Shown piece after piece: positions 28-19,814 of a stretch of 64,000 nucleotides of DNA. This DNA is from Anaerolineae bacterium. GTDB lineage: Bacteria > Chloroflexota > Anaerolineae > VGOG01. The position numbers were made by a program, and so were the translations under genes. A model generated the notes under the pieces. The model worked only from the letters and a program-made list of their open reading frames with translations. It ran no database searches and had not been told where the DNA came from. The stretch spans positions 28,053 to 92,052 of the forward strand of contig DAOUDK010000034.1 of NCBI GenBank assembly GCA_034431315.1, written 5' to 3'. Numbering within the stretch: position 1 is the stretch's first letter; each line of letters starts with the position of its first letter.

Positions 28-1026
28 GTGATTGATCCTAACCTCCCACTGATTGACCTGCACCGTCATTTGGACGGCAACGTGCGCCTGGAAACAATCC
101 TGGATCTGGCGCGTCGGCACAACCTGCCACTCCCTGCCTGGGATCTCGAAGGGTTGCGCCCCTACGTGCAGGTGACGGAACCCCAACCCGGCGTCATGGC
201 GTTCATCGCCAAATTCAAGTGGATGATCGGCGTCCTGGTGGACTACGACGCCTGCCGCCGGGCAGCGTACGAAAACGTCGAGGACGCCCAGCGAGAGGGC
301 CTTGACTACGTCGAACTGCGCTTCAGCCCGTGGTTCATGGCGGAGTCCCATGGCCTTGATCCGGCGGGGGTGGTGGAAGCCGTTGCCGATGGCGTGGAGG
401 CGGGTACGCGCGACTTTGGGGTCAAAGTTAACCTGATCGGGATTCTCAGCCGCACGTATGGGCCGGAGATCGCCTGGAAGGAATTGGAAGTCCTACTGCA
501 ACACAGGGATCGGCTGGTGGCTCTGGATCTGGCGGGGGATGAGGCGAACTGGCCGGGGGACCTGTTCGTGGAGCACCTGCGGCGAGCGCGAGATGCGGGC
601 TGGCAGGTGACGATCCACGCGGGGGAAGTCGCGGGGCCGGAGAGCGTCTGGCAGGCCATTCTCGATCTGAGGGCTATGCGCATCGGCCACGCCGTTCGGG
701 CCATTGAGGACCCAGCATTGCTGGACTACATGGCCGAGCGCCAGATAGGCATCGAGTCGAGCCTGACCAGCAACGTGCAGACCAGCACCGTGTCCGACTA
801 TGCCAGTCATCCGCTGCGAACCTTTCTGGAGCGGGGGCTGTTGGCGACGATCAATACCGATGATCCGGGCATAAGTGGCATTGACCTGCGCCACGAATAC
901 GAGGTAGCTGCGCCGGAGGCGGGTCTGACAGTCGAGCACACACGCCAGGCCCAACGCAACGCCCTGACCATCGCCTTTCTCTCAGTCGAAGAGAAGGATG
1001 CGTTGGTTGCCCAGAGAGCACGGTAG
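28..1026 (+). CDS. add: adenosine deaminase
   Basis: 332 aa; HRHLDG metal-binding motif, SLTSN and TINTDDP motifs typical of the adenosine deaminase TIM-barrel; GTG start with a GAAGGA RBS-like motif upstream. Confidence 0.85.
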
Positions 1027-1357
1027 GAAGGGTCCTCTTTGGCGAGTTCTTCAGGCGTGGCACGCGGAAGGTGTGCCTGAATGCCGATGCACGGAATCTC
1101 ACCGACGCCATTCGCCTTTACGAGAAAGCTGGCATGCACGTGGAGCATCAGTACGTCACCTACGAGAAGGAACTGTGCCCCGGAGAGGAACTGAGTACTC
1201 AGTCAGTGGGGGGTTGACCATTTGGGAGGTAGTGTGAGGAAATCAAGACCAGACTCCGATGCTCCTTGGGGGTGGAACGCCGCGTAGCCAGGAGCGTCTC
1301 TGAACCATGATAGGATAGCGACTCGAAACGGACCATAGGCAGATGGCAGCCAAGCCG

Positions 1358-1978
1358 TCAGTCCTCTGCTATTGTAGCCCATCTCTTGAAAATAGCTGTT
1401 ATTGTCTCCCAACAGAGTCCAGCGTCGTCTATCGTAACTTGAATTTTCTCTTTGAAGACCGGATTAGATTGAATCGTGTGCAGAAAAGTATCCATGTACT
1501 TGGTCATCGCGAGTGCCATAAGCACATTGGCTAAATCATCTCGGTCCATCACTTTCACACGATCAGACACAGAATCTCTGGGAAGAGATTCTTTTTCCGC
1601 CAGGTAGAATACACCAGAGACGTAGTTGTACTGGCTCATCAATTCCTGATAAACCCGCAAATCATTTACGTACTCTACCACCGTGCCCATACCGGCGTGG
1701 CGGATGCCCCCAGGATCTAAGAACTGAATTCCCCAGAAGTGGTGACCAACGAGCGTGTCTTCTCCCACAACTTCGTAACCTTGTAGAAAGAGGGCCACAG
1801 GAAACAAAGCAGTGAGATCATCGGTGGATAGTCCAGCTATGCCCATTGCCAGGCACTGCTTGATCTGCCGGAGGTCTTCTACCAAACGTGAAGATGTCAG
1901 AAAAGGCTCTGTGTTTTCTGTCAGGCTCTGTTTCACCAAGCTATGAACTATATGTATGCCATTGCTGAGATCAACCAT
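1358..1978 (-). CDS. hypothetical protein (low-GC, no recognisable motif)
   Basis: Roughly 206-aa ORF in a distinctly AT-richer block (about 1290..2010), immediately downstream of the NACHT gene on the same strand; start assigned to the internal ATG (MVDLSNG...) because the listed first codon is TTG. Confidence 0.45.
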   Translation of the reverse strand: MVDLSNGIHIVHSLVKQSLTENTEPFLTSSRLVEDLRQIKQCLAMGIAGLSTDDLTALFPVALFLQGYEVVGEDTLVGHHFWGIQFLDPGGIRHAGMGTVVEYVNDLRVYQELMSQYNYVSGVFYLAEKESLPRDSVSDRVKVMDRDDLANVLMALAMTKYMDTFLHTIQSNPVFKEKIQVTIDDAGLCWETITAIFKRWATIAED

Positions 1979-2016
1979 CTTAAAGTTTCTCTTCTTCAAC
2001 TGCTACAGCCAAATAC

Positions 2017-4896
2017 TCATCGCACCAATACGCAGCGGAACCCAGTAGCACCGTGCCTTTGATTGCAAGGAAGTGCCTGGCGCATGATACACATGATCCG
2101 CCACCTTGTTAGAGCGTTGAAAGATCCGCCCCTGACCGCCCGGTCTTGGGGTGCTTGGGAATACTGCTCGCCGTAGCGCTTGAATTGGTCAGACGTCCAT
2201 TCCATCACATTCCCGGCCATATCCATCACTCTGAAAGGACTGGCTCCGGCAGGGTAGATACCCACAGGGGTTGTAGTGTACAAGTCGATGTTGGCACGGT
2301 CCTCTTCCCATGTCATACCCCAAGGCCACCAACGCCCGTCGCCACCCCGGGCAGCCCATTCCCATTCCGCCTCCGTTGGTAGGCGATAGAGGTGTTCCTG
2401 ACCAGTCTTTTCGGTCATATAGGCCGAGCGCCAATGGCAAAAGGCTTCTGCCTCGTACCAACTCACCCCCAAGACAGGATGGTTGGGCTTTCGAATGCCT
2501 AGCTCGTCGTGGTCCCAGTACGAGGGTTTTGGATCGGCTCCCCATCGCCACCGCCAGCCCTCCTCTGACCAGTATACTTCGTTGCTATATCCTCCGGCGT
2601 CCATAAACTGTTTGTACTGCCAGTTAGTCACGGGATAGCGATCTATCGTGAAAGCAATAACCCGCACTTTCTGTTGAGGGGTGGCGAGGGCCAGCATTCG
2701 CCGCAGATCGGGCCTATCACCAGCTTGGTGAATAATAGCCTCCGCCGCTGCTTCAGAAAGTCCCATCACCGACTCCCCTGCTGAGATTTCTAGCATCTCC
2801 CCAAGTCGAGGATCCCCAACTTCACCCAGGACATCTCCCGCATCCCTTCTAATCTCAAAGCTTTCCTCAGAGGCACTGATGACGGCTATTAGGCCAGCAA
2901 GTACTTCATCTCTGACCTTAACTCTGACTGCACCACGACCGGCATCCCCGAGACATTCTCCGATGAGAATGAAGTAAGATCCCTTCTCCCTCGTTGGGCT
3001 GCCTTCTGCCGTCTTCAACATCGCGGTGAGCAAACCTTCCAACCGCGCGCCTCGCAAGAGGCCAGCCGTGAGTCGGATGCTCTCTCTCCAGCGGAGGTCG
3101 CCCATATGTTTACAGACTAATTCACTGGTGTTCGGCTGGTTGCACATATACTCAGCCGCCAGGAATTCCTCGAAGGTTTGATGGGGAAAACTGTATTCTC
3201 CACTTCCTCGCTCGACAAGCAGCCCCGTTTGCTCAGACACAATCTCGATAAAAGCGCGGGCTTGTTCCTGAGCTCTAATTCTGCTCAGGCCCTCGTGCTC
3301 TTGCAACCAGTCGGCAACGTGCTCCTCCAATTCGGAGCGGGGAATAGTGCTCCCAGGCTCCTGTTCGTGCATCCATAGAGCAATAGGCCCCAGGACGCCG
3401 CTAACGTAGTACCTATCGAACTGGAGTTCTTCGGGCGTTACTGGGCGGTCAGCCATGCTCCGTGCCCAATCCCAGGTCTCAACCAAGGCCTTCACGCACT
3501 CGCTGTATAGTTCGGCCCGATGGTGCGGTAAGTGAGCGCCGCGATAGTAATAGAGTAAGACCATGATAGCCAAGAGCAAAGGGGTTCTGGCCAAGTCAAA
3601 GACGCCGGGATTGCGAAAGATGGTCTTGAGCAAATCATCTGCCGACCCTGCTTCCCTGCCGAAGCCGTAGTTATGAAAGACTTCAAACCAGCGTTCCACA
3701 AAGGTACGAATCTCGTGCTTGGTGAAAGGGGCTATGGAGATAACAGCAAAATCCTTCTCCAGGGGAGCCTGGCGATAGCTGGCCGGACGGCTGGTTACGA
3801 TGAAGCGGTTCTTCGGATAGCGGACGACGAAATCACGGATGTGCTCTACAACCCCCCATCGCTCTCCAGTGGAGATGATCTCATCCAGGCCATCCAGCAA
3901 CACCAGACAGTTGCCTCGCTCCAGCTCATAATCAAAAAGTGGCTTCAATCCCCCTTGCCCACGTCCCCTGAAATACACAGGCAGATAGTCGGCCAGAGAG
4001 ATGTCTGGGTCGTCGCGTAGAGCCCTGGCGTAGGCAGAGACGGGAAATGGCAAAGGAAACCATATTCTGTCTGTAGCGAGCTCAATCCCTAACATATTTG
4101 TTACCGCCGTTGGGCCTCCAGCTAGGGCCAGGGCAATGTACCTCAACAGGGTTGTTTTTCCTGTACCAGGGTCGCCGAGCACGGCGACTTGCTTCTTGCC
4201 TAGGAGTAATTTCCTGAAATCCAGGGGCTCCGTCTGCCCTCGCTCTGCTGCCTCGAGTGGCTCCGGGGCGGGCAGGACAGACTCACTCTCGTATCTGATC
4301 CGCAAAGGGACAAAGAGCTTCGACAAAGGCAAGGAAACGAACTCTTTGAGAAACAAGAGACCCTGGAAGTCCATCTGTCCTTCGCGCTGGACGAGGTAAT
4401 TGAAGTAATATTCCCGTAGCTTATCCCGCTTGTGCCGTTCGGCCGCAGCTGTCTCGGCAAGAAATTCAAATGGGCCAGCAATGCAGCTCCAGAAATCGCC
4501 GGCCGTCATTCCCATCTTGGCTGCTATATCCGGCGGGACAAAGAACACGTATGAACAACCGAAGCGACGAAGAACATCCCGTTCCTGGTTCAAGCGGGCG
4601 ATGGCCAAGTCTCTTTCCTCGGGAGACAACCTGCTCCAACCCTCAACGAACAGAATGCCCGGACGTTCAGTCTCAAATGGTTCCTGCCACAAGTACGTAG
4701 CTACGCTGGGTTGGATACCGTCAATAGGCCAACTCTTGATCTCGAGTTCCTCCCGCAAGTCTGCAAAGAGATTGGCAATGATGGTATTCTCTAGCTCCCA
4801 GTCATCTACGATCACCACGATCAGGCTGCCTGCCTCTTCGTGGTGTCGCAATGTGTTGAGCAGCTTTTGGTATTCTTTATCAGCGACGAACGGCAT
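2017..4896 (-). CDS. NACHT-family STAND NTPase with unknown N-terminal alpha/beta domain, HEAT-like repeats and C-terminal FGE-sulfatase (formylglycine-generating-enzyme-like) domain
   Basis: 959 aa; Walker A GDPGTGKTTLL, Walker B LVLLDGLDEI typical of NACHT; central GDxLGEVGDPRL HEAT/PBS-like repeats; C-terminal region with YPVTNWQY...GVSWYEAEAFCHW...RLPTEAEWEWAARGG...GNVMEWT...RGGSF...GFRCV signature of the FGE-sulfatase (SUMF1) fold; start overlaps the stop of the upstream ATPase gene by 17 nt. Confidence 0.8.
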   Translation of the reverse strand: MPFVADKEYQKLLNTLRHHEEAGSLIVVIVDDWELENTIIANLFADLREELEIKSWPIDGIQPSVATYLWQEPFETERPGILFVEGWSRLSPEERDLAIARLNQERDVLRRFGCSYVFFVPPDIAAKMGMTAGDFWSCIAGPFEFLAETAAAERHKRDKLREYYFNYLVQREGQMDFQGLLFLKEFVSLPLSKLFVPLRIRYESESVLPAPEPLEAAERGQTEPLDFRKLLLGKKQVAVLGDPGTGKTTLLRYIALALAGGPTAVTNMLGIELATDRIWFPLPFPVSAYARALRDDPDISLADYLPVYFRGRGQGGLKPLFDYELERGNCLVLLDGLDEIISTGERWGVVEHIRDFVVRYPKNRFIVTSRPASYRQAPLEKDFAVISIAPFTKHEIRTFVERWFEVFHNYGFGREAGSADDLLKTIFRNPGVFDLARTPLLLAIMVLLYYYRGAHLPHHRAELYSECVKALVETWDWARSMADRPVTPEELQFDRYYVSGVLGPIALWMHEQEPGSTIPRSELEEHVADWLQEHEGLSRIRAQEQARAFIEIVSEQTGLLVERGSGEYSFPHQTFEEFLAAEYMCNQPNTSELVCKHMGDLRWRESIRLTAGLLRGARLEGLLTAMLKTAEGSPTREKGSYFILIGECLGDAGRGAVRVKVRDEVLAGLIAVISASEESFEIRRDAGDVLGEVGDPRLGEMLEISAGESVMGLSEAAAEAIIHQAGDRPDLRRMLALATPQQKVRVIAFTIDRYPVTNWQYKQFMDAGGYSNEVYWSEEGWRWRWGADPKPSYWDHDELGIRKPNHPVLGVSWYEAEAFCHWRSAYMTEKTGQEHLYRLPTEAEWEWAARGGDGRWWPWGMTWEEDRANIDLYTTTPVGIYPAGASPFRVMDMAGNVMEWTSDQFKRYGEQYSQAPQDRAVRGGSFNALTRWRIMCIMRQALPCNQRHGATGFRCVLVR

Positions 4897-6250
4897 CAGT
4901 CATGCGCTCCTCGGTCTCGACACCTTGCAATATCATGCGTACGATGGGGTGGAGGTCGTACCACACACCGTCGTTAACATAGCTCAAAATGTATAGGTTC
5001 AAGATAAGATTATCGCCAACCTCCGTACCTGAGCGCCGAGGGGACTCTAGGAATCTTTGCAGTTCCTCAAATTCGGTTCGCCCCAAAGGTCTGGAGTACT
5101 TGCGCTGTTCAGCATAAGCTGCTTTGCGCGCGGCCAGCAGATCAATCTGGCATTGGGATCTCACCTCAGCTTCGAGAATGGCGTCACGCATCAGAGCAAT
5201 AAGCTGTCGCATCACCCCACCACTCATCGCCACCAAAAGATCGAGCGCCTTAGGGGCAATCACATCTTCCGTCGCCATTCCCAAGCTTTGCAACCGCTTA
5301 TGCACAACCTGCTGCATGGTCTGCGAGCCCTTGTCATACCTGACATCCGGCTGGTCTTCCTCGTGGAGCTTGACGTTAGGAAACTCTATCGTGGGGAAAC
5401 GGCTCCGTACCTGGCTATAGTCAGGGTGATAGCAGAGTACAATGGGCGCAGTATAGATTGCTCGGCAGGGAGGAGTATGCAACACCCAGCTATCAGCGAA
5501 AAAGGCGCGCGCGTGAGCCAAATTGTCTACTTTGTCGAGACCATCCACGATTAGAAAAACCGGCTTACCCGCTTTGTCTTCCACATCGCGCACGATGGCC
5601 TGCACTCGCAAGATGACCTCTGAAAGCCTGGGACTCAGCTCCAACTTGCGCAGCATCTTGCCAGTAGCGCCAAGGGTGAACGGTGCGCCACTCGTCAGCC
5701 CATTGATCACCTTGCCAGCGGCAGTTGCTGCTACAGGCCCTCCTACCAACCCAATCCCAAAGCAGGCGATAGCGCCCAATATCTGGCTCACGTCTATTTC
5801 AAAGTCCTCCTTTTCTGTCTCTTCTCGGATCAGTGTAGTCAGACTCTTCTCTAGCTCATTACGCAATGCCTTATCTGGCTTGTTGGACAACCCAGCCTCT
5901 GCTATCTTACAAACTGCAAAGCCCATCATCGAGAGCACGTCAAGCTGGTTTAAGCTATGAATGTCCCCGCCTGCGCTAGTTTCCAAGTCCAGCCAGATCA
6001 CGAAGTATTGGTCCTGTATCAATTGAGCGAACTTGGCTAATTCCGAAGTCTTGCCACTGCCCCGGTGCCCAGTCAGCACAGTTTGGAGAGCGACCCGGTC
6101 AGGTCGCATTGCAAGCACTAGTTTCTCCAGGGGGCTGTCTTCCCGTTCCACAAAAAATGCTTCGAGATCATCTCCCCACAACGATTTCCACGGATCAAAG
6201 ACATTGTAAATCGGCGTCCAATATTGTCCGATGTTTTGTTGCTCTGCCAT
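4880..6250 (-). CDS. STAND-like P-loop ATPase (Walker A/B NTPase, no sensor repeats)
   Basis: Walker A GHRGSGKTSEL and Walker B FLIVDGLDKV; ATG at 6250 preceded by AAGGAGGAAG RBS (the ORF-track start at 6325 is probably too long); 3' end overlaps the NACHT gene start, consistent with translational coupling. Confidence 0.65.
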   Translation of the reverse strand: MAEQQNIGQYWTPIYNVFDPWKSLWGDDLEAFFVEREDSPLEKLVLAMRPDRVALQTVLTGHRGSGKTSELAKFAQLIQDQYFVIWLDLETSAGGDIHSLNQLDVLSMMGFAVCKIAEAGLSNKPDKALRNELEKSLTTLIREETEKEDFEIDVSQILGAIACFGIGLVGGPVAATAAGKVINGLTSGAPFTLGATGKMLRKLELSPRLSEVILRVQAIVRDVEDKAGKPVFLIVDGLDKVDNLAHARAFFADSWVLHTPPCRAIYTAPIVLCYHPDYSQVRSRFPTIEFPNVKLHEEDQPDVRYDKGSQTMQQVVHKRLQSLGMATEDVIAPKALDLLVAMSGGVMRQLIALMRDAILEAEVRSQCQIDLLAARKAAYAEQRKYSRPLGRTEFEELQRFLESPRRSGTEVGDNLILNLYILSYVNDGVWYDLHPIVRMILQGVETEERMTDAVRR

Positions 6251-6334
6251 CGACTTCCTCCTTGATTGATTGCAAACGTGCGTTAAGGTAGCATGCCTGG
6301 TGGCGCGATTAAGCTGCAAGCACACAGCAGGAAA

Positions 6335-6850
6335 TTACTTGGGCAACGGCGGCAGTTTCTCTGCTGGTATCTCGGTGATCTCAATCCCGTCATTATAAAC
6401 GGTAAAAGCTGGTCGGCCCAGCCGCACAAACTCGGTAGTCACGAATCGCTCACAATATGCCAGGTGCACCGGAGAAGGGCCCATGTTGGTAACGGTGAAG
6501 AATAGATAGCCTCTGTAACCAGGGTCGATGATCCCACCATTGTAGAGTAGCCCCTTGATGGCAAAATAGGAGCGCATTGACATCCGGCCTTTCATGTCAG
6601 AGGGTAAGTGCACCTTTTCCAAACCGTGAATCACTGCGCTGCGACCGACAGGGATCTCAAGACCACCATCGCGCTCGACGTCAATCTTGACGTATCCACC
6701 TTCTCGTTCAGGCAGCACCACGATGGCAGTTTTCCCGACCCTTATGTCGTAGGAAGCCCCCTTTAACACTTCAGGTGAGAAAGGCTCCAGTAAATTGCTT
6801 TCCATCGCTGCCCTTCGGATATCGGCGTCCAACAAAGTCTCATCTGCCAT
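6335..6850 (-). CDS. dCTP deaminase / dUTPase-superfamily protein (Dcd-like)
   Basis: 171 aa; GIIDPGYRG motif corresponding to the conserved (H/G)xIDPGWxG active-site loop of the dCTP deaminase/dUTPase beta-barrel; GGGAGGAAAAG RBS upstream of the ATG. Confidence 0.7.
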   Translation of the reverse strand: MADETLLDADIRRAAMESNLLEPFSPEVLKGASYDIRVGKTAIVVLPEREGGYVKIDVERDGGLEIPVGRSAVIHGLEKVHLPSDMKGRMSMRSYFAIKGLLYNGGIIDPGYRGYLFFTVTNMGPSPVHLAYCERFVTTEFVRLGRPAFTVYNDGIEITEIPAEKLPPLPK

Positions 6851-6932
6851 TTTCTTTTCCTCCCTGACTTGTTTTGTTGTCCAAGCGATTGAAAGGGCTG
6901 TTGCATCTTGCTGAGACGCAAAGCGTTACAAT

Positions 6933-7853
6933 TCAAGCCCAAGGACGGCCATACATCTTGATTCGCACTTCCCTAACGATCTCTTTGAGCTTTAGCTGAT
7001 AGTCCAGAGGCCCCTGCGGTACAATTATTCCAGTTGTGTAAAAATTTACCGGAATGGGCCTTTCCCGCTCGGCGTGGGTAAACAAAGCCTGATAGCCACT
7101 GTTGATGCTTCTGATTGATAGCAAAAACAGATCTTCTCTTTCTGCCGCCAAGTCACTGAAAACGGACATGAGCTGATTTGACCGCAGAAGCGCTCGCTGT
7201 TTCTGCGAGGGCAACCAGTCAGCTCCGAGAAGCGGCTCGACTCTTTGCCTGACAGAATCCCACACTTTTTCCTCCGGCAAGTCGCCCTTGACAATGTGGA
7301 TGTTCTCTGCAAATTGGCGCAGACGCTCCATCACCTCCAGGTAACGATTTTTCACCATTTGCAATGCTTGAGCGTTTTCAAAGAGCTCGTAGTGAAAGCC
7401 GCGACTGCTGGTGATACGCTTCATACAGGTTTCAACCGGCACGTCCAAAAAGATTGTCAGATCCGGGTGGATGCAGCGGTAGTTCAGTTGATATATCCAA
7501 CGCGTCTCAACATCAAGAGACTGATAAGCCAGCGACGACAGGTAGTAACGGTCGCAAACAACATGCCATCCGCTGGCCAGTCGGTGAGCGATGCCGTTGG
7601 TTCGACAGTAGAGGTGATCCAGCCGATCAGTGGCAAAGAGCAAGGCCAGTGTCTGGCGGTCAGCCTTCAGTCTTCCAGTGAGAATCGACCTGATTTGCGC
7701 ACCGGCTGGCCCCTGACTGGGCTCCTGGGTCAAATAGGCCACTCCTGTGGCTCTCGACAACCACGCCTGCAGCAATCGGGCTTGCGTGGTCGTGCCGGCG
7801 CCATCTAGACCCTCGATGACGATGAAACGCCCTGGCCCCTCGTTAAAGATCAT
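6933..7853 (-). CDS. thymidylate kinase-fold protein with P-loop Lys->Thr substitution and about 100-aa C-terminal extension
   Basis: 306 aa; IVIEGLDGAGTTTQ (canonical Tmk is GxDGAGKTT), CDRYYLSSLAYQ (DRY motif), REPSQGPAGAQIR (LID-like); GGGGAAGG RBS. Confidence 0.7.
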   Translation of the reverse strand: MIFNEGPGRFIVIEGLDGAGTTTQARLLQAWLSRATGVAYLTQEPSQGPAGAQIRSILTGRLKADRQTLALLFATDRLDHLYCRTNGIAHRLASGWHVVCDRYYLSSLAYQSLDVETRWIYQLNYRCIHPDLTIFLDVPVETCMKRITSSRGFHYELFENAQALQMVKNRYLEVMERLRQFAENIHIVKGDLPEEKVWDSVRQRVEPLLGADWLPSQKQRALLRSNQLMSVFSDLAAEREDLFLLSIRSINSGYQALFTHAERERPIPVNFYTTGIIVPQGPLDYQLKLKEIVREVRIKMYGRPWA

Positions 7854-7861
7854 GCCTTCCC

Positions 7862-8494
7862 CTACCTCATGAGGTCAGTCACATGCCTCTTGATGTCCCG
7901 TGCAATCGCTGCGGCAGGCCGGTTGCCCTTGATGATAACGATCTTTTCTCCCTCCACGCGCAGCGACTCTATGGTCATCAGGTAATTTTCCCGCACTTTT
8001 TTAAGTCTTTTACGTTCTTGTTCAAGTTTGTCAGCTATATACGAGTTGGTTTTGACTAGGGTCTCCAAGTAAGCGTTGATTGGCGTGTCTAGGAAAAGAG
8101 TCAGATCGGGCTGGCGACACTCGGCGTTGATCCAACGCAGCCACTTCGAGTCGGAATGAAGGGCCTGGTAGGCGAGAGAAGAGAGGTAGTAGCGCAGGCA
8201 AATCACGTGCTCTTCCAACACCAAGCGCGCGAGGATACCCCCGTTCTTGTTCAGATGGTCCATCCGGTCGGTGGCAAAGAAGAGCGCCAGGGTCACCTCG
8301 TCTACGTCCAGTCGCCCATCCAGGATGAAGCGAATCTGGGAGCCAAAGGGCCCGTCGCTGGGCTCGCGGGTGAGATGTACCTTTAGTCTTTCCTCCCGCA
8401 GCCATCCATATAGCCTCTCCCCTTGCTCCTCAAGTTCCTGGCTGTCAATACCTTCTAGCACGATAAACTTGCCTGGGGTAGGGGATTCTTGCAT
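7862..8494 (-). CDS. thymidylate kinase-fold protein with fully degenerate P-loop (pseudokinase-like)
   Basis: 210 aa; FIVLEGIDSQELEEQ replaces the P-loop; CLRYYLSSLAYQA retained; stop of upstream gene 3 nt before its ATG. Confidence 0.65.
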   Translation of the reverse strand: MQESPTPGKFIVLEGIDSQELEEQGERLYGWLREERLKVHLTREPSDGPFGSQIRFILDGRLDVDEVTLALFFATDRMDHLNKNGGILARLVLEEHVICLRYYLSSLAYQALHSDSKWLRWINAECRQPDLTLFLDTPINAYLETLVKTNSYIADKLEQERKRLKKVRENYLMTIESLRVEGEKIVIIKGNRPAAAIARDIKRHVTDLMR

Positions 8495-8497
8495 GCC

Positions 8498-9157
8498 TCA
8501 CTCCTCTGCTGATGACTCACTTGAGCGAAAAATGATCGGGGCAATGAGCTTTACAGTCTGCTGATGGGTTGATTCCATCGAGCCAGAACTATTCACAATT
8601 TGAATATCTTCCTTCCTCTCATCTCGCAATAGGGGAATAATCCGATTGAACTGCATGCTGACCCTCCTGAGTATCTCTGGCCGTTCATATCGCTCTGGTT
8701 CGAACTTTCGCCGGATGCGTTCCATACATACCTCAGGCGGAGATTGCAAAAAGATGGTTAGATCAGGCCGCCAGTTGCGGGCGTTGAGTTGCCACAGCCA
8801 ATCCCAGCCATCTGGCAACAAATGAGACTGGTAAGCCAGGAAGGAAAGATAGTACCTATCACAAATCACATGAATGCCAGCCTCCAGCCTGGGTAGTATA
8901 AAGCGATCCAGGTGGTCTGCCCGATCGGCTGCGAAGAGAAGAGCGAGCGCTTCCTCGCCGATATTCAGTCTGCCCTGCAGGGCATGTCGTATCTCGGTCC
9001 CGGCAGGGCCCTGGCTAGGCTCGGCAGTGAAAGCAACGCGATGCATATCACAGCCACTTCGCCTCAGCCACTCGCGTAGCATCTCAACCTGTTCCGTCAG
9101 GCCAGAACCATCCAGCCCGTCGAAGGTGATGAATTTACCTCTCGATATATCTGCCAT
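8498..9157 (-). CDS. thymidylate kinase-fold protein with P-loop Lys->Leu substitution
   Basis: FITFDGLDGSGLTEQ (K replaced by L), CDRYYLSFLAYQS; start placed at the ATG (MADISRGKF...) 12 nt inside the listed GTG start at 9169; either start is possible. Confidence 0.6.
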   Translation of the reverse strand: MADISRGKFITFDGLDGSGLTEQVEMLREWLRRSGCDMHRVAFTAEPSQGPAGTEIRHALQGRLNIGEEALALLFAADRADHLDRFILPRLEAGIHVICDRYYLSFLAYQSHLLPDGWDWLWQLNARNWRPDLTIFLQSPPEVCMERIRRKFEPERYERPEILRRVSMQFNRIIPLLRDERKEDIQIVNSSGSMESTHQQTVKLIAPIIFRSSESSAEE

Positions 9158-9296
9158 ACTCTCGCTCACCCTGTGGCCATTGGCGTTGCTTCATCCGCAC
9201 CGGCAAAGTATCCTCCATGTAGAACCCTATCAACCGTGCTGCTGCGGCAGGCCGCACGGAAAAGTTCACCATCCCATATCTACTCGGGACGCTACC

Positions 9297-9325
9297 ATTA
9301 TACAACATTATCCCCAAATTGCCAA
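9297..9325 (-). promoter_or_regulatory. sigma70-like promoter candidate for the tmk-like/dcd/STAND cluster
   Basis: On minus strand: TTGGCA - 17 nt - TATAAT, about 130 nt upstream of the first tmk-like start. Confidence 0.4.
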
Positions 9326-9449
9326 ACACCAATATGAAAATCTCATTCAGATAGACACGGAAACGGAGTGAAAGGCGGAAGGCCGGATAAGCGCCTGACA
9401 CCGAAAGCGTCCTCTGCGTCGAACGGGGGCAGATGGATGACACCGGCTT

Positions 9450-9478
9450 TGTACAATCTGATGGAAATGGAGTATAAT
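9450..9478 (+). promoter_or_regulatory. sigma70-like promoter candidate for ATP-cone/uridine-kinase-like gene
   Basis: TGTACA - 17 nt - TATAAT, about 60 nt upstream of ATG 9538 which has a GGGAGAGAGGGA RBS. Confidence 0.4.
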
Positions 9479-9537
9479 TGTGGCTACATTCCCGAAAGCT
9501 GAAGCGGTGATGCCAGAGTGGGAGAGAGGGATACGAT

Positions 9538-10896
9538 ATGGCGAAGATTAAACAAGTAGTCAAGCGAACAGGGGCTGTGGTGCCCTTTAAGAAAGAGCGC
9601 ATCACCAACGCTATCTATCGAGCAGCGGTGGCCGTGGGCGGCCGCGACCGGTCCGTCGCAGAGCGGCTGGCCGACCAGGTCGTGGCTATGCTGGAGGAGA
9701 TCACGCCGCCAGGCCACATCCCCACCGTCGAGGAGATCCAGGACATCGCCGAGAAGGTGTTGATTGAGAACGGCCACGCCAGAACAGCCAAGGCCTTCAT
9801 CCTATACCGCGACGAACGGGCCCGTCGGCGGCGGGAGCGGGCCGAGCGCTCAGCCCATCCCTCCAAGAATATCCCCTGGCACAAGCTCTGGGAGGTGCTC
9901 AACTGGGCCGTTGATCACGACCTCCACACCGTCGAGCGCCTGAACGAGCGCATCGCCCAGGGCGAGTTCCCGGAGATCGTACGGGAAACCGATCGGGCCT
10001 ACAACGAGGACATCACCACCGCGTCGGAGGTGATCGGTGAGCGCCGGGACAGCGTAAAGATTGTCATCATCGCCGGGCCCTCCTCCTCTGGCAAGACTAC
10101 CACGACCATCAAGCTCAGCCATCTGCTGACGAAGATGGGCCTCAGCCTGGTCCCGCTCACTGTTGACAACTACTACCTCGACCTGGAACTCCATCCCAAA
10201 GACGAGTACGGAGATTACGACTTTGAGACGCCCCAGGCTCTCGATCTGGAACTCATTAACGAGCACCTGGCACGCCTGATCGCCGGGGAGGAGGTGTGGA
10301 TTCCGCTCTACGACTTCAAAACCGGCAAGCGGCACGACGCCCAGGCTCCCATGCGGGTCGGGCCCGACGACGTTATCCTCATTGATAGCCTGCACGGCTT
10401 GTTCGCCGACATGACGCGGAGCGTGGACGATGAATTGAAGTTCAAGCTGTACATCGAACCGTTGCTGCAAATGAAGGGGCCTGATGGGAAATTCGTTCGC
10501 TGGACAGACCTGCGGTTGATGCGCCGCATGGTCCGCGACGCCACTCACCGCGCCTACAAACCACAGCAGACGCTGGAACACTGGCATTACGTTCGCAGCA
10601 GCGAGATGCGCCACATCATCCCCTACGTCAACACGACCGACTACATCGTCAACAGCGGCCTGCCGTACGAACTCCCTGTCATGCGGGCCAGGATGTTCGG
10701 CCATTTCGAGGAGTGGGTGGAACAGTACAGGGACGATCCGCTGCGCGAAGATGCTTCCACGCGCGCCGAGCGCGTGTATCATCTTCTGAAGTCCGTCACC
10801 CCGGTCGAGGACGATGGCCGGCCTACGGGCGGCTCGGCCATACCGCCCGACTCGCTCCTGCGGGAGTTCATCGGCGGCAGTTGCTACGAGTATTGA
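9538..10896 (+). CDS. ATP-cone domain fused to uridine kinase/phosphoribulokinase-family P-loop kinase
   Basis: N-terminal approx. 90 aa match ATP-cone (KVVKRTGAVVPFKKERITNAI...); central IIAGPSSSGKTTT Walker A and LIDSLHGLF of the Udk/PRK family; stop overlaps start of next gene (TGATG). Confidence 0.7.
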   Translation: MAKIKQVVKRTGAVVPFKKERITNAIYRAAVAVGGRDRSVAERLADQVVAMLEEITPPGHIPTVEEIQDIAEKVLIENGHARTAKAFILYRDERARRRRERAERSAHPSKNIPWHKLWEVLNWAVDHDLHTVERLNERIAQGEFPEIVRETDRAYNEDITTASEVIGERRDSVKIVIIAGPSSSGKTTTTIKLSHLLTKMGLSLVPLTVDNYYLDLELHPKDEYGDYDFETPQALDLELINEHLARLIAGEEVWIPLYDFKTGKRHDAQAPMRVGPDDVILIDSLHGLFADMTRSVDDELKFKLYIEPLLQMKGPDGKFVRWTDLRLMRRMVRDATHRAYKPQQTLEHWHYVRSSEMRHIIPYVNTTDYIVNSGLPYELPVMRARMFGHFEEWVEQYRDDPLREDASTRAERVYHLLKSVTPVEDDGRPTGGSAIPPDSLLREFIGGSCYEY

Positions 10897-11824: not shown

Positions 11825-12781
11825 ATGCTCTACCCCCTTTTCGACCGGAGCAAGCTGAAACTCAGATCTTTGTCGGAGCGAGTGCACGACATGGCTTTGG
11901 CCGAGGTCTTGAACCTGGACGACGATGTTCTACCCTTTGACGACCCCGGCCTGGATCAAGTGGCCGAGCGCGTGACGCAAGCGCATCAGGCCGGAGCTCA
12001 GGTGATCATGATGATGGGCGCGCACGTCATCAAGCGCGGCCTGTCGCGTTTCGTCGTTGACCTGATGGAGCGGGGCATCATCACCCATGTCGGCATGAAC
12101 GGCGCCGGGCCCATCCACGATTTCGAGCTGGCCCTCATCGGCGCGACCACCGAGAGCGTGGCCCGCTACATCCAGGAAGGGCAGTTCGGGCTGTGGGAGG
12201 AGACCGGCCGCCTCAATGAGGCCATCCGGCAGGGGGCGTGCGATGGCCTGGGGCTGGGCGAGGCGGTCGGGCGGATGATCGAGGAGGAGCGATTCCCCCA
12301 TCGCGACGCGAGCATCCTGGCGGCGGGCTACCGGCTGCGGGTGCCGGTGACGGCGCACGTGGGCATCGGCTACGACATCATCCACGAGCACCCCAACTGC
12401 GACGGGGCGGCCCTGGGCGAGACCTCCTACCGCGATTTCCTGGCCCTGGCCCACAGCGTCTCCAATTTGCAAAACGGGGTGCTCCTGAACTTCGGCACGG
12501 CGGTGATGGGGCCGGAGGTCTTCCTCAAGGCCCTGGCCATGTCTCGCAACGTGGCTCACCAGGAGGGGCGGCGCATCAACTGCTTCACCACCGCCGTCTT
12601 CGACCTCGTGCACCTCGGCTCCTATCACCGCGAAGCGTCCAGGGCTGATGCGCGTTACTACTTCCGGCCCTACAAGACCCTCCTGGTGCGCACCGTCCAG
12701 GACGGCGGCGAGAGTTTCTACATCCAGGGCGACCACCGAGCCACGCTGCCGAACCTGTATCGCCTCGTTACCGAGAGATGA
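11825..12781 (+). CDS. hypothetical protein (possibly deoxyhypusine-synthase-like fold; uncertain)
   Basis: 318-aa ORF with protein-like composition; 4-nt ATGA overlap with downstream PfkB gene suggests an operon. Confidence 0.4.
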   Translation: MLYPLFDRSKLKLRSLSERVHDMALAEVLNLDDDVLPFDDPGLDQVAERVTQAHQAGAQVIMMMGAHVIKRGLSRFVVDLMERGIITHVGMNGAGPIHDFELALIGATTESVARYIQEGQFGLWEETGRLNEAIRQGACDGLGLGEAVGRMIEEERFPHRDASILAAGYRLRVPVTAHVGIGYDIIHEHPNCDGAALGETSYRDFLALAHSVSNLQNGVLLNFGTAVMGPEVFLKALAMSRNVAHQEGRRINCFTTAVFDLVHLGSYHREASRADARYYFRPYKTLLVRTVQDGGESFYIQGDHRATLPNLYRLVTER

Positions 12782-13848
12782 TGGACGAGAGACGCCTCGA
12801 CGAATTGCTGAACCGATTCCCTCACCTCCACGTGCTGGTGGTGGGCGACTTTTTTCTGGACAAGTACTTGATCATTGACCGGCGGCTGAGCGAGGTCTCG
12901 CTGGAGACGGGCCTGGAGGCCTATCAGGTCGTGGAGGTGCGATGCAGCCCCGGCGCGGCCGGGACCATCACCTCCAACCTGCGGGCACTGGGAGTCCAGG
13001 TCGCGGCGCTAGGCGTCATCGGCGACGACGGCGGGGGCTACGAGCTGAGGCGGGGCCTGGCGGAGAGGGGGGTGGACATCGAGTCGCTCATCCAGCGGGC
13101 CGACCTCTTCACGCCGACGTACACCAAGCCGATGGTGCGGGAACCCGACGGCCGGGAGCACGAGATCCAACGGCTCGACATAAAGAACCGTGCACCATTG
13201 CCGACGGAAGTGGAGGAGGAGGTCATCGCCCATCTGCGGGCCCTGGCGCCCAAAGTAGACGCGGTGGTCGTCGCCGACCAGGCGCAGGAGCGCAACTGCG
13301 GCGTGATCACCGACCGGGTGCGGGAGGAGATTGGGCGACTGGCGCTCCGCCATCCGGGCAAAGTCTTCGCCGCCGACTCCCGCGAGCACATCGGGATCTT
13401 CCGGCACGTTATCGTCAAGCCCAACCGACAGGAGGCAACCCTGGCCGTGCGACCGGATTGGAAAGGCGAGTTCACCCTGGAGGCGGCCAGGGAGTGTGGC
13501 GCGGAGCTCTTCCGCCGCAACCAGAAGCCGGTCTTCCTCACTGCTGGAGATCATGGCATCCTCCTGTTCACTGAAAAGGGATGCCAGCACATTCCGGCCG
13601 TGCCGGTAGAGGGCGAGATAGACATCGTCGGGGCGGGGGACAGCGTGATGGCCGGCATCGTGTCGGCCCTGTGCAGCGGAGCCGAGCCTGAGGAAGCGGC
13701 CTTGCTGGGCAACGTCGTCGCCTCCGTCACCATCCAGCAGATAGGCGCCACAGGTACGGCCTCGCCGGCGCAGGTGAGGGAACGATTTAGAACACGGATT
13801 CGCAGGATTGGCGGATTTCTACTCAGTCCGAGCTGTTTGATCCGTTAA
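12778..13848 (+). CDS. PfkB-family carbohydrate kinase (RfaE/HldE kinase-domain-like)
   Basis: VLVVGDFFLDKYL N-terminus and DIVGAGDSVMAG PfkB signature 2. Confidence 0.7.
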   Translation: MMDERRLDELLNRFPHLHVLVVGDFFLDKYLIIDRRLSEVSLETGLEAYQVVEVRCSPGAAGTITSNLRALGVQVAALGVIGDDGGGYELRRGLAERGVDIESLIQRADLFTPTYTKPMVREPDGREHEIQRLDIKNRAPLPTEVEEEVIAHLRALAPKVDAVVVADQAQERNCGVITDRVREEIGRLALRHPGKVFAADSREHIGIFRHVIVKPNRQEATLAVRPDWKGEFTLEAARECGAELFRRNQKPVFLTAGDHGILLFTEKGCQHIPAVPVEGEIDIVGAGDSVMAGIVSALCSGAEPEEAALLGNVVASVTIQQIGATGTASPAQVRERFRTRIRRIGGFLLSPSCLIR

Positions 13849-13944
13849 TCCTGCCCATCCGCTGTTCTGATTTGGAGAATTTGCCGAGAAGGGGTATAAT
13901 AGCCGCGAACCCTGCAAGGGACAAAATTCGAAAGGGGAGTGACG

Positions 13945-14874
13945 ATGAAAATTATGGTTACGGGAGGCGCGGGCTTCATCGGCTCGCACGTGGTGGATGC
14001 TTTGATCGAAAGGGGGCACGAGGTGGTCGTGGTGGACGACCTCTCCACGGGAAAGCGCGAGCATCTCAACCCACGAGCGAAGTTCTATCACCTCGACATC
14101 CGCGATGCCCAGCAGTTGGAAGAGGTCTTCGCCGCCGAGCGCCCTGAGATCGTCAACCACCAGGCGGCGCGCGCCAACGTGCGCGAATCTATGGCCAAGC
14201 CCGTCCTCTACGCCGAGGTCAATGTCATTGGCTCGCTCAACTTGCTAGAACTGAGCCGGAAGTATGAGGTCGAGAAATTCATCTACGCCTCCACCGGTGG
14301 GGCTGTCTACGGCGAGCCGGAGCACCTCCCCGCTGACGAGTCCCATCCCATCAATCCGCTCGATCCCTACGGAGCCAGCAAGCATTTTGTGGAGCACTAC
14401 CTCTACCTCTACGGCGTCAACTACGGCTTGTGCTACACTACCTTGCGCTACCCCAACGTCTACGGGCCGCGCCAGGACCCCTACGGCGAGGCAGGCGTGG
14501 TGGCCATCTTCACCGGCCAGATGCTCAAGGGCGGGGAGCCGGTGATCAACGGCAGCGGCGAGCAAGAGCGCGACTTCGTCTACGTTGGCGACATCGCGGA
14601 GGCCAACATCAAGGCTATGGAAAGGGGCGATGGACAAATCTACAACGTCGGCTGGGGGGTCGGCACCTCTATAAACGAGATCTTCGCCAAGCTGAAGGAG
14701 ATCACTGGCTATGAAAGGAAGGTCGTTCACGGCCCTCCAAAGCTGGGCGAGGTTTTCAAAATCTACCTGGATGCCAGCAAGTCCCAGCACGAGCTAGGCT
14801 GGGCGCCACGGGTCGGATTGGACGAAGGAATGAGGATGACGGTGGAGTATTTCAGAAATGCGCATAGGGATTAA
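13945..14874 (+). CDS. NAD-dependent epimerase/dehydratase (GalE-like)
   Basis: MKIMVTGGAGFIGS Rossmann motif, YGASK catalytic YxxxK; AAAGGGGAG RBS before ATG 13945. Confidence 0.8.
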   Translation: MKIMVTGGAGFIGSHVVDALIERGHEVVVVDDLSTGKREHLNPRAKFYHLDIRDAQQLEEVFAAERPEIVNHQAARANVRESMAKPVLYAEVNVIGSLNLLELSRKYEVEKFIYASTGGAVYGEPEHLPADESHPINPLDPYGASKHFVEHYLYLYGVNYGLCYTTLRYPNVYGPRQDPYGEAGVVAIFTGQMLKGGEPVINGSGEQERDFVYVGDIAEANIKAMERGDGQIYNVGWGVGTSINEIFAKLKEITGYERKVVHGPPKLGEVFKIYLDASKSQHELGWAPRVGLDEGMRMTVEYFRNAHRD

Positions 14875-19248: not shown

Positions 19249-19280
19249 ATTGCCGTAGTTTGTGATGAAAAAACCCAAAC

Positions 19281-19309
19281 TTGCGTGAAATCAGGAGAAG
19301 TGTTATAAT
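19281..19309 (+). promoter_or_regulatory. sigma70 promoter
   Basis: TTGCGT - 17 nt - TATAAT upstream of 19368 CDS. Confidence 0.5.
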
Positions 19310-19367
19310 CTTCCAAGATAGCCGTCATAACGAGCATCATTATTAACAGTTAGAAAGGAGCATTGAA

Positions 19368-19814
19368 ATGAGCGAAGAAGTACCTCTTGAGCCGAAGGTC
19401 AATCCCAGTCCGACCTGGAAGGTGAACACCAAGGCGCGGCTAAGTGCCTGTGATAATCGCCCTGGCCTGAAGAAGATTTACGTCAGGATCTTAGACGACA
19501 AGGGCGAGCCCCTGGGTGGGATCAAAGTGCGCTTCGATGTCGAGCCCTCCCAGGGCACGGCTTACGATCACCCGAACGTCTGGGGGCTGACTGGCGAGGA
19601 CGGGTACCTGGAGTGGAACCACCTCGGCGTGCCCACCCGCTACATGCTCTGGATGGAGGATGATGAGACTCCCCTCGTCGAGAACATCCGAACCGACCTG
19701 GGGTACGAGTACTGTCGTCCTTCGGGCGCGACACATGGCGGCTGGAGGCCTGTGAACAAGCCGGGTGTCTACTCCTATCGGATCGAAGTCCAGAGGAAGG
19801 GAGAGGGCGACTAG
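19368..19814 (+). CDS. hypothetical protein, stand-alone copy of the C-terminal domain of the 20355 gene
   Basis: 148 aa; aligns almost residue-for-residue with the C-terminal 140 aa of the 251-aa protein at 20355..21110 (PNPTWKVNTK.RLSACDNRPGLKKIYV...YSYRIE.QRKGEG); AAAGGAG RBS. Confidence 0.7.
   Translation: MSEEVPLEPKVNPSPTWKVNTKARLSACDNRPGLKKIYVRILDDKGEPLGGIKVRFDVEPSQGTAYDHPNVWGLTGEDGYLEWNHLGVPTRYMLWMEDDETPLVENIRTDLGYEYCRPSGATHGGWRPVNKPGVYSYRIEVQRKGEGD

Follow-up and report, generated by a model that had tools for sequence, protein, structure and literature searches.

A two-gene STAND-type unit of a small ATPase and a NACHT-FGE-sulfatase protein headed by a putative AAA+-like docking domain

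The bNACHT and related NLR-like proteins with FGS/HEAT arms are described as encoded mostly by single genes and as carrying enzymatic effectors or EAD/Death-like adaptors at their N-termini (bioRxiv 10.1101/2022.07.19.500537; PMC7159879). The NACHT protein of the gene pair analyzed here (gene 2) resembles these 'antigen-receptor-type' proteins in its central NACHT domain with GxxGxGKT and DGLDE motifs, in an FGS or HEAT C-terminus as the presumed ligand-binding arm, and in an N-terminal slot of the non-catalytic 'adaptor' kind. It differs in that its N-terminus is an AAA+ core lacking the P-loop (pAAA) and that a second gene, encoding a NOD-only ATPase (gene 1), is an obligate neighbor. The Avs and other defence-associated STAND clades likewise have an FGE-sulfatase-like sensor attached to a STAND NTPase (PMC13581612, Fig. 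1c), whereas two genes and no fused effector are found here. PADLOC searches with the Avs1-n, bNACHT, and EruA family models gave only P-loop-level matches at E ≥ 3e-4 and no Avs match, and the NCBIfam EruA model scored 40.4 bits against a cut-off of 1000.

In BREX, the P-loop-less BrxB sits in the position of a BrxC protomer, gives R182 to the ATP pocket, and blocks more BrxC stacking (PMC13326643). The resemblance of the present pair to BrxC-BrxB is structural only, with no relationship at the sequence level, and the pseudo-domain is here fused to a receptor. No match to the BREX models (PglX/PglZ/BrxL) or to DUF1788/DUF499 was detected by PADLOC and Pfam among the eight proteins scanned. 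The iSTAND component of MoxR-vWA ternary conflict systems is a dead STAND/AAA+ nucleotide-binding domain that serves as the constant component (PMC7159879). pAAA is similar in appearing to be a catalytically dead STAND/AAA+ nucleotide-binding domain used as a constant part, but it consists of the alpha/beta core only, lacking the helical and winged-helix domains, and it is paired with an active NOD-only ATPase and not with MoxR or vWA. MoxR AAA+ and vWA genes were absent among the genes at 28-9169 of the window (the whole 64-kb stretch of DNA analyzed), and a MoxR-DUF58 pair was found downstream in one locus only (L008). Plant sensor/helper NLR pairs consist of co-encoded NOD proteins, one with a recognition arm and the other a minimal NOD that possibly executes the response, and the helper may act on membranes. 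The likeness of the present pair to them is one of analogy only, because the coupling would here be made by a pseudo-AAA+ domain and not by CC/TIR domains or integrated decoys.

Table 1. Features of the gene pair and its downstream neighbor (window positions)
Feature	Positions	Strand	Basis or remark
Gene 1, NOD-only STAND/ORC-like AAA+ ATPase, 456 aa (NBD, lid, C-terminal winged helix)	4880..6250	-	
Walker A GHRGSGKT (aa 61-68)	6047..6070	-	direct sequence reading
Hydrophobic Gly/Ala-rich insert between Walker A and B (aa 157-201)	5648..5782	-	one Lys in ~43 residues
Walker B LIVDGLDKV (aa 233-241), NACHT-like DGLD form	5528..5554	-	
Gene 2, pAAA-NACHT-(HEAT-like)-FGE-sulfatase protein, 959 aa	2017..4896	-	
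pAAA domain (aa 1-150), AAA+ alpha/beta core without Walker A loop; putative docking domain for gene 1	4447..4896	-	
Linker and pre-P-loop segment of NACHT module (aa 151-235)	4192..4446	-	alignable with other NACHT partners, among them the Mrr_cat variant
NACHT NTPase domain (aa 236-405), GDPGTGKTT and LLDGLDE	3682..4191	-	Pfam NACHT
Helical and winged-helix part of NOD, ~1 degenerate HEAT-like repeat (aa 406-699)	2800..3681	-	alignment with NACHT-HEAT relatives
C-terminal FGE-sulfatase (FGS, C-type-lectin-like) domain (aa 700-959), presumed sensor	2017..2799	-	Pfam
Possible accessory gene, 206-aa orphan 38 nt downstream	1358..1978	-	public gene call

The exact proteins of both genes are present in public gene calls. 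Gene 1 starts with an ATG at 6250 preceded by AGGAGG and stops at 4880-4882 (a longer GTG ORF reaching to 6325 has a start different from that in the public calls), and gene 2 runs from an ATG at 4896 to a stop at 2017-2019. The 17-nt overlap described in an earlier note on this DNA was confirmed at 4880-4896 with both genes on the minus strand, as were the motifs GHRGSGKT and LIVDGLDKV in the ATPase and GDPGTGKTT and LLDGLDE in the NACHT protein. The length of the overlap is not conserved, a relative of 82% identity having a 3-nt gap; the tight adjacency is kept. Both genes are under purifying selection (dN/dS of 0.12-0.29 against one relative), which indicates that they are real genes.

Gene 1 encodes a NOD-only STAND/ORC-like ATPase without a sensor and without an effector. 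It possesses the NBD, helical lid, winged helix, and Walker A/B motifs of a STAND/AAA_16-type NOD, with a STAND-type FVER...L motif ahead of the P-loop, a DGLD Walker B, and an MSGGVMR motif with a sensor-2-like arginine. Its Walker motifs are intact; in 51 homologues, G61 of Walker A is invariant and G66 and K67 are kept in at least 90%, and the Walker B residues D236, G237, L238, and D239 are nearly invariant to invariant. Structure comparison revealed a fold of the ORC/STAND type, with the KAP-type RdrA among the fold matches. Named STAND family HMMs remained below threshold (AAA_16, 22.1 vs 32.6; Sll1717 family, 20.2 vs 75), the cut-off of the ORC/Cdc6 family HMM was not reached, PADLOC contained no corresponding model, and sequence comparison with the NACHT of the partner gave a match at the P-loop only. 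We regard it as scarcely credible that gene 1 encodes an ORC/Cdc6/TnsC-type factor for replication, transposition, or loading, functionally unrelated to the NACHT gene and adjacent to it incidentally. Identity is 14-17% with every HMM score under its cut-off, Orc1/Cdc6 is not used by bacteria, to which most of the hosts belong, there is no conserved transposase or origin context, and both the STAND-type motifs and the adjacency to pAAA in at least six phyla, seen in both search directions, argue against such a factor.

The insert between Walker A and B showed a peak 19-aa Kyte-Doolittle hydropathy of 2.02, and the AF2 pLDDT was below 50 at aa 169-187 within it. KAP P-loop NTPases (PF07693) reportedly carry a hydrophobic segment between Walker A and Walker B. 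Gene 1 is similar to them in its hydrophobic inter-Walker insert and gave a weak KAP_NTPase match (E 0.0016), which missed the Pfam cut-off (18.2 vs 20). Unlike KAP NTPases, however, it has a single clearly TM-like stretch, and the insert is missing in the TPR-paired half of the ATPase family. ATPases with NACHT partners contain the insert; their inter-Walker regions span 158-179 aa with a hydrophobic stretch, and their Walker B reads DGLDK. The insert is absent from most ATPases with TPR partners, of which the inter-Walker regions measure 138-155 aa, mostly without a hydrophobic stretch, and the Walker B reads [DE]DLDK.

In gene 2, the Pfam NACHT model matched with E 4.2e-11 and 43.4 bits (gathering cut-off of 26.7), and the Walker A GxxGxGK[ST] and Walker B hhhhDGxDE signatures are present and conserved across partner proteins. 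The HEAT repeats previously proposed to precede the FGE domain held up only in part: about one degenerate repeat was recognized, which resembles the HEAT units of relatives and is matched by AlphaRep at E 0.03-0.07. Pfam HEAT gave no match in gene 2 at E ≤ 0.01, and relatives of gene 2 carry HEAT arrays. The FGE-sulfatase model of Pfam covered aa 700-956 with E 3.7e-44, and PDB sequence matches of this domain were ToxD, EgtB, CalU17, and FGE. Catalytic equivalog models scored far under their cut-offs (EgtB, 97.6/360; SenA, 85/420; OvoA, 74.5/400; PvdO, 53/500); the domain matches only the generic FGE-sulfatase fold and no catalytic family. In a comparison by eye with the human sequence, the catalytic cysteine pair of FGE seemed to be absent. 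The FGS C-terminus is 97-100% identical in close relatives; the FGE sensor is conserved, not diversifying, and nearly identical between lineages. No second copy of 2017-2500 that could act as a template repeat was found in the 64-kb window, and a crude test of its six-frame translation revealed no DGR reverse-transcriptase-like signature; a DGR elsewhere in the genome is possible. The interpretation of this domain as a sensor fits published STAND/NACHT architectures (PMC13581612 Fig. 1c; bioRxiv 10.1101/2022.07.19.500537; PMC7159879). Because FGE-sulfatase sensors are known in them, a non-TPR sensor is not unusual in itself.

The N-terminal stretch of about 230 aa, which had been left unassigned, contains a globular domain without a Pfam match, but this domain, pAAA, comprises only about 150 aa, and residues 150-235 are the linker and pre-P-loop segment. 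A search of 1.84 billion representative proteins yielded only 22 relatives of pAAA at E ≤ 1e-3. The model of the domain was confident (pLDDT 86.9), and its fold matched ORC/Cdc6, TnsC, STAND proteins, and the degenerate AAA+ proteins ORC3, Rif2, and BrxB, the match to BrxB being no better than those to generic AAA+ cores. Most family members retain GLD after beta3 and R-P after beta4, and these motif remnants suggest that pAAA is a degenerate STAND nucleotide-binding domain. R-P is lost in gene 2 of the window (FFVPP). R106 and D134 are the sole invariant residues of the family, and R106 sits in helix alpha3, ahead of beta4 and off the canonical post-beta4 position of an arginine finger. Profile comparison between the pAAA and ATPase families was not significant, and members of the pAAA family showed no DUF1788/DUF499 matches.

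Since bacterial NACHT modules usually have their effectors N-terminal and a syntenic relative has an Mrr_cat nuclease at this very position, the N-terminal ~230 aa could act as an effector enzyme (TIR, nuclease, or SLOG-like) in a conventional effector-NOD-sensor STAND protein, with the ATPase as a mere accessory. The earlier note had expected an effector here. This is very improbable, since the model resembles AAA+ cores only, TIR, SLOG, and nuclease folds are not among its top matches, no family match was obtained, the invariant residues are limited to one Arg and one Asp, and pAAA also heads NOD-less TPR-only proteins, always beside the ATPase gene. Neither protein contains an enzymatic effector. 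pAAA thus looks like a crippled ATPase-like docking domain rather than an effector.

The ATPase gene is directly followed by a pAAA-bearing gene in about 50 loci (Chloroflexota, Acidobacteriota, Binatia, Cyanobacteria, and Methanoperedens); the two-gene unit is spread over many uncultured bacteria as well as some archaea, with the adjacency spanning at least six phyla. When searched from the ATPase, a pAAA ORF was directly downstream in 36 of the 41 genome loci; the remaining five comprised one Mrr_cat-NACHT partner, two loci ending within ~200 nt past the ATPase gene, and two with ATPase fragments only. When searched from pAAA, 11 metagenome loci were obtained, and the ATPase gene was upstream in all nine having upstream DNA. 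The spacing of the two genes is usually -4 to +15 nt, and no third gene conserved across the pair loci was found. The adjacency of ATPase and pAAA is strict, bidirectional, and cross-phylum, whereas everything C-terminal to pAAA varies, the partners being pAAA-NACHT-HEAT, pAAA-NACHT-HEAT-FGE, and pAAA-TPR without a NOD. This bears out the two-component arrangement that had been noticed as a genuine STAND-type unit. In the syntenic variant where an Mrr_cat nuclease replaces pAAA, the ATPase gene is still there, so that pAAA may not be the sole contact. Against the close relative L001, amino acid identity is 82% for the ATPase and 83% for pAAA, and 93-98% from the NOD to FGE; the ATPase and pAAA form a co-diverging block. 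Each of four MAGs contains two diversified copies of the pair. The distribution is patchy, and some loci adjoin toxin-antitoxin, HNH, IS66, or RAMP genes.

We propose, with about even confidence, that the pair acts as a STAND-type molecular switch of two components, with pAAA docking on the ATPase in the manner of BrxB on BrxC. Gene 2 would be the sensor arm, with an active NACHT NOD, a HEAT remnant, an FGE-sulfatase-fold domain, and pAAA in front. From the co-occurrence and the BrxB/BrxC analogy, we infer that the nucleotide face of the ATPase is where pAAA binds, in the role of a pseudo-protomer. Through such docking, the ATP state or oligomerization of the small ATPase would be linked both to the recognition of ligands by FGE/HEAT and to NACHT oligomerization. 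Most speculatively, the output might be delivered by the ATPase, of which the KAP-like hydrophobic insert in the NACHT-paired clade could engage a membrane, and the biological role, equally speculative, might be defence against invading elements. Proteins that combine NACHT with FGS/HEAT sensors have an established place in phage defence, and the Mrr_cat swap, the paired diversified copies in four MAGs, the patchy distribution, and the toxin-antitoxin, HNH, IS66, or RAMP neighbors of some loci are likewise immune-like. An immune role of the pair is plausible but unproven, because neither an effector nor a defence-island signal was found.

The logic could also be the opposite, the ATPase capping the NACHT protein via pAAA as its guard or inhibitor and keeping it inactive; loss or hijacking of the ATPase would free NACHT oligomerization, and the freed oligomers would act through some host target. 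BrxB binding precludes more BrxC stacking, the ATPase-pAAA block has diverged more rapidly than the sensor, as would be expected were it the part targeted by invaders, and the Walker A Lys is lost in some ATPase homologues (P0026 and P0028; GHHSSGIS), all of which are consistent with a guard. We nevertheless consider a guard improbable, since an effector is still lacking and the TPR-only partners have no NOD to free.

Three Tmk-like genes and one dUTPase-like gene, all nucleotide-metabolism-like, lie nearby in this lineage. The sole strong promoter-like site is upstream of Tmk1, no terminator-like site precedes the pair, and the pair may be co-transcribed with these genes in this organism; a seven-gene block is kept in relatives. 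PADLOC analysis of 120 flanking ORFs from 17 loci revealed no real defence enrichment, the top 'mad3' matches being ordinary ABC transporters, and many genes flanking the pair loci are metabolic. Together with the lack of an effector domain and the conserved, non-diversifying sensor, these data would suit a module with a regulatory or assembly function outside immunity, working as an ATP-dependent switch upon recognition of a cellular ligand via its FGE/HEAT or TPR arm and here serving the nucleotide-metabolism-like operon. Many STAND proteins are regulators, such as MalT and AfsR. However, the Tmk/DCD linkage is confined to close relatives and absent from all distant pair loci, including L053, another FGE variant, and neither protein has a DNA-binding output domain save the winged helix of the ATPase. 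The multiple diversified copies within genomes, the patchy phyletic spread, the Mrr_cat swap, and the link of NACHT-FGS/HEAT architectures elsewhere to conflict systems also argue against such a module, which we judge to be rather unlikely.

The 206-aa orphan matched nothing in Pfam or PDB, even with the threshold relaxed to E 10. Its homologues were found in close relatives only (L001-L006, L011, and L012) and were absent from distant pair loci, and its dN/dS was 0.38.

The earlier note described two overlapping, co-oriented genes, and these were confirmed on the minus strand with an overlap of 17 nt: gene 1, which encodes the ATPase, and gene 2, which encodes the NACHT protein directly downstream. 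Public gene calls contain exactly these two proteins, and all the motifs quoted for them are present in the translations.

Coordinates of the gene pair and of neighbouring features in the window
Feature	Position (nt)	Strand	Remarks
Adenosine deaminase gene	28-1026	plus	Convergent, intact, 332 aa; NCBIfam equivalog, 518 bits
206-aa orphan gene	1358-1978	minus	38 nt downstream of the NACHT gene; dN/dS 0.38
Gene 2 (NACHT protein)	ATG 4896, stop 2017-2019	minus	959 aa
Gene 1 (ATPase)	ATG 6250, stop 4880-4882	minus	456 aa; AGGAGG box before ATG
DCD-family protein	6335-6850	minus	171 aa; directly upstream of the ATPase gene
Three tandem thymidylate-kinase (Tmk) paralogues	6933-9169	minus	Walker A lysine missing in all
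Sigma-70-like promoter match, TTGGCA-17-TATAAT	9297-9325	minus	11/12, best of the region; upstream of Tmk1
Divergent promoter-like match	9450-9478	plus	Faces the ATP-cone/uridine-kinase gene
ATP-cone + PRK/uridine-kinase-family fusion	9538-10896	plus	452 aa; divergent from the Tmk cluster
PfkB-family kinase	12778-13848		
Cell-envelope glycosylation gene run	13939-24700	plus	

Distant homologues of the ATPase gene are also followed by a gene for a NACHT-HEAT protein, in neighbourhoods that are otherwise unrelated. An ATPase-based scan with one genome per species gave 41 loci, whose hosts were Anaerolineae and other Chloroflexota, Acidobacteriota, Binatia, Entotheonellaceae, Chamaesiphon, Candidatus Methanoperedens, and others. 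Downstream ORFs were searched with HMMs built in this analysis for the N-terminal domain of gene 2, a pseudo-AAA+ domain (pAAA), and a pAAA-bearing ORF was found directly downstream of the ATPase gene in 36 of the 41 loci. The remaining five comprise one with an Mrr_cat-NACHT partner, two in which the sequence stops within ~200 nt of the end of the ATPase gene, and two with only an ATPase fragment, which in one case sits at the contig start. The reverse search from pAAA gave 11 metagenome loci, and the ATPase gene was directly upstream in all nine having upstream DNA. The conserved unit is the ATPase gene and the pAAA-bearing gene, adjacent in both directions of search and across phyla. This co-occurrence is the strongest result of the analysis and moves the domain in the 'effector slot' to a putative coupling role. 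What follows pAAA is NACHT-HEAT, NACHT-HEAT-FGE (in the window, in P0089, and at locus L053), or TPR repeats alone; the pAAA-TPR form without a nucleotide-binding oligomerisation module (NOD) occurs in Acidobacteriota, Methanoperedens, Chloroflexia, and Cyanobacteria. No conserved third gene emerged when the flanking ORFs were clustered all against all.

In gene 2, Pfam assigned NACHT to aa 236-405, at 43.4 bits where the cut-off is 26.7, and the C-terminal FGE-sulfatase domain to aa 700-956 (E 3.7e-44), in agreement with the earlier note. The HEAT repeats that it placed before the FGE domain were borne out only in part: Pfam detected no HEAT, and what there is consists of AlphaRep matches at E 0.03-0.07 and a single degenerate repeat. 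This repeat resembles the HEAT units of relatives, in which long HEAT arrays occupy the place of the FGE domain. Gene 2 shows every testable feature of the NACHT clade and therefore belongs to it. It falls outside the named antiphage families (EruA 40 bits against a cut-off of 1000, no Avs model match), and its FGE domain lies within the fold family and outside every catalytic equivalog.

Neither gene 1 nor the N-terminal region of gene 2 gave anything above threshold in Pfam, NCBIfam, or PADLOC. For the N-terminal region, a word-indexed homologue search with the first 236 aa gave no match and a 14-sequence profile gave 8 short fragments only. Finding relatives required exhaustive searching with HMMER, and among 1.84 billion representative proteins this detected only 22 at E<=1e-3. 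The match was N-terminal in 21 of the 22; among ten relatives scanned with Pfam, nine carried NACHT after pAAA and five a C-terminal HEAT or FGE-sulfatase domain. The ~230 aa described as unassigned have no family match; the conserved globular part is ~150 aa, and residues 150-235 are a linker and a pre-P-loop segment common to these NACHT modules. The suggestion that this region holds an effector domain found no support, as no TIR, SLOG, or nuclease fold was among the top fold matches, and an effector role was rejected on fold grounds. Two residues, R106 and D134, never vary in the family, N103 and F135 hardly vary, and a two-residue turn occupies the P-loop position, with no GxxxxGK[ST]. Most family members keep 'GLD' after beta3 and 'R-P' after beta4, similar to DGLDE and TSRP in NACHT proteins. 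From these remnants we infer descent of pAAA from a STAND nucleotide-binding domain by decay, which the profile comparison does not confirm. A recent duplication of the ATPase nucleotide-binding domain was also considered and was rejected because the profile comparison was not significant.

The ATPase has 85 homologues, and the AF2 model built from 51 sequences was confident (pLDDT 89.4, pTM 0.89). Since the modelled parts are an AAA+ core, a helical lid, and a C-terminal winged helix, the ATPase is a NOD-only protein without sensor or effector. Its fold is of the STAND/ORC type, and it remains below every family threshold, KAP and ORC-CDC6-like included. Its profile comparison with the partner NACHT was not significant, so the two are not close paralogues. 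The segment separating Walker A from Walker B includes a Gly/Ala-rich hydrophobic stretch of ~43 residues with one Lys; this stretch has a 19-aa hydropathy peak of 2.02 and low AF2 confidence. Which of the two ATPase sub-families a locus carries goes with its partner type: where the partner is a NACHT protein, the insert is long and hydrophobic and Walker B reads DGLDK; where it is a TPR protein, the insert is shorter and mostly non-hydrophobic, and Walker B reads [DE]DLDK. The Walker A lysine is lost in some homologues (P0026 and P0028, GHHSSGIS). At locus L010 the partner gene is in fragments and the ATPase P-loop is disrupted, a sign that the pair may be decaying in some lineages.

Bacterial NLR-like proteins are generally described as one polypeptide, with effector, NOD, and sensor in a single chain. 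Here, by contrast, two proteins share these tasks, a minimal NOD-only ATPase and a receptor, with a dead AAA+ domain as the putative link. No description of the pair turned up in Pfam, NCBIfam, or PADLOC. A non-exhaustive literature search found no NOD-only ATPase paired with a pseudo-AAA+-headed receptor, and an equally non-exhaustive one on 'Sll1717' and two-gene or helper STAND systems found no description of the pair.

The 'effector slot' has undergone a natural domain swap. At L008 (8910-12014), L009 (8901-12299), and L020 (8826-11087), which are syntenic with locus L007, an Mrr_cat restriction-endonuclease domain replaces pAAA and the linker while the upstream ATPase gene is retained. 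In P0012, the ATPase of this variant, the C-terminus is altered, and ~118 nt separate its gene from that of the partner. Compared with the close relative L001, the ATPase is 82% identical in amino acids (dS 0.72) and pAAA 83%, with the highest dN/dS in gene 2 (0.29); the NOD-to-FGE part is 93-98% identical, and the ATPase and pAAA form a diverged block. Over window positions 1000-9700, blocks of 96-99% nucleotide identity to L001 alternate with blocks of 76-84%, and dS ranges from 0.04 to 0.96 across adjacent genes and domains. This mosaic pattern points to recombination inside the cluster.

The analysis establishes how the domains are arranged, which folds they have, and that the ATPase and pAAA genes are obligate neighbours. 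By analogy, pAAA would dock as a pseudo-protomer on the nucleotide face of the ATPase. Ligand recognition by the FGE/HEAT (or TPR) arm would in this way be tied to the ATPase, either to its ATP cycle or to its oligomerisation. The nearest precedent on record is BrxB/BrxC of BREX, and both window domains match those chains structurally. BrxB, which is P-loop-less, takes a BrxC protomer position, gives R182 to the ATP pocket, and stops further BrxC stacking (PMC13326643). Since R106 of pAAA is off the canonical arginine-finger position and the Mrr_cat variant keeps the ATPase without pAAA, we consider docking about equally likely to hold or to fail. If it holds, it would represent a new wiring of STAND receptors to downstream components, bear on how sensor/helper NLR networks can evolve, and offer a testable role for two domain families that so far lack annotation. 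It would also correct a tempting mis-annotation, by showing that the N-terminal slot of a bacterial NACHT protein can hold something other than an effector.

No enzymatic effector was found in the ATPase or the gene 2 protein. Speculatively, the only candidate for the output is a hydrophobic insert of the ATPase that is specific to its clade, KAP-like, and possibly membrane-active. The pair might be a prokaryotic counterpart of sensor-helper NLRs, an idea to which we give only a slim chance. The NACHT-HEAT/FGE (or TPR) protein would recognise an invader and, through its degenerate nucleotide-binding domain, recruit the ATPase and nucleate its oligomerisation; the Gly/Ala-rich hydrophobic hairpin of the ATPase would then enter the membrane, with death or arrest of the cell as the outcome. 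If so, pseudo-AAA+/AAA+ docking would be a new adaptor principle in immune STAND proteins, separate from the Death-like and EAD adaptors, which are homotypic.

An immune role is favoured by NACHT with FGE-sulfatase-fold or HEAT sensors being an established antiphage architecture, by the nuclease that can stand in place of pAAA, by two diversified copies of the pair in each of four MAGs, by the patchy phyletic distribution, and by toxin-antitoxin, HNH, IS66, RAMP, or baeRF neighbours at some loci. A non-immune regulatory role is nevertheless a serious, if unlikely, rival, because PADLOC has no model for the ATPase, the FGE sensor is not diversifying, the window has no diversity-generating retroelement (DGR), the pair may be co-transcribed with nucleotide-metabolism-like genes in this organism, and, among 120 flanking ORFs from 17 loci, six apparent PADLOC 'mad3' matches were ordinary ABC transporters in Pfam. 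A defence-island signal from the 'mad3' matches was discarded, since Pfam showed ABC transporters with permeases. The flank matches to 'mad3', 'AriA', and 'GajA' at L015, L031, L033, L036, and L044 are ABC-transporter ATPases beside permease genes; matches to defence models can be generic at E<=1e-10. The FGE domain as a target of a DGR was likewise rejected, as the window has no template repeat or reverse transcriptase signature and the C-terminus is conserved. At L007, ~4.5 kb upstream of the ATPase/NACHT-HEAT pair, lies a bAvd/23S_rRNA_IVP-like gene (3372-3749), whose family is that of the DGR accessory proteins; no reverse transcriptase was seen among the genes listed for this locus.

Consensus matching detected no promoter-like or terminator-like site between the DCD and ATPase genes, so the three Tmk genes, the DCD gene, the pair, and the 206-aa gene may form one transcript. 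The Tmk and DCD genes were rejected as components of the system since their linkage is confined to close relatives. The Walker A motifs of the Tmk paralogues read GSGLT, SQELE, and GAGTT, against GSGKT in T. thermophilus Tmk, and the middle one has LRY instead of DRY. All three are under purifying selection in comparison with a relative (dN/dS 0.14-0.26), and the 64-kb window has no canonical Tmk elsewhere. Tmk3 has a C-terminal extension of ~100 aa and a PADLOC PDC-M51B match at 2.4e-19, which may reflect generic Tmk homology. The best PDB relatives of the DCD-like protein are 9ln0 and 8y1w (155-156 aa, deposited as 'dCTP deaminase'). At what we take to be the catalytic-Glu position of E. coli Dcd, no Glu was seen by eye in the window protein or in 9ln0/8y1w; a dUTPase-like or dNTP-binding role therefore seems more likely than deamination.

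For the 206-aa orphan, Pfam and PDB searches relaxed to E 10 gave nothing. L001-L006, L011, and L012 carry a homologue of it in the corresponding place, and none was detected in the other loci covered; in other clades an unrelated 120-122-aa gene, also without a family match, takes this position (L007/L008). The adenosine deaminase is reduced in cluster-sharing relatives to a 116-aa gene call with A_deaminase matches (L001 8453-8803). Together with the Tmk-like, DCD-like, ATP-cone/uridine-kinase, and PfkB genes, it gives the area a nucleotide-salvage theme. The glycosylation run includes an NAD-dependent epimerase, a GT4 glycosyltransferase, and large TMEM260-like and YfhO/PTPS-related membrane proteins of ~1100 aa each.
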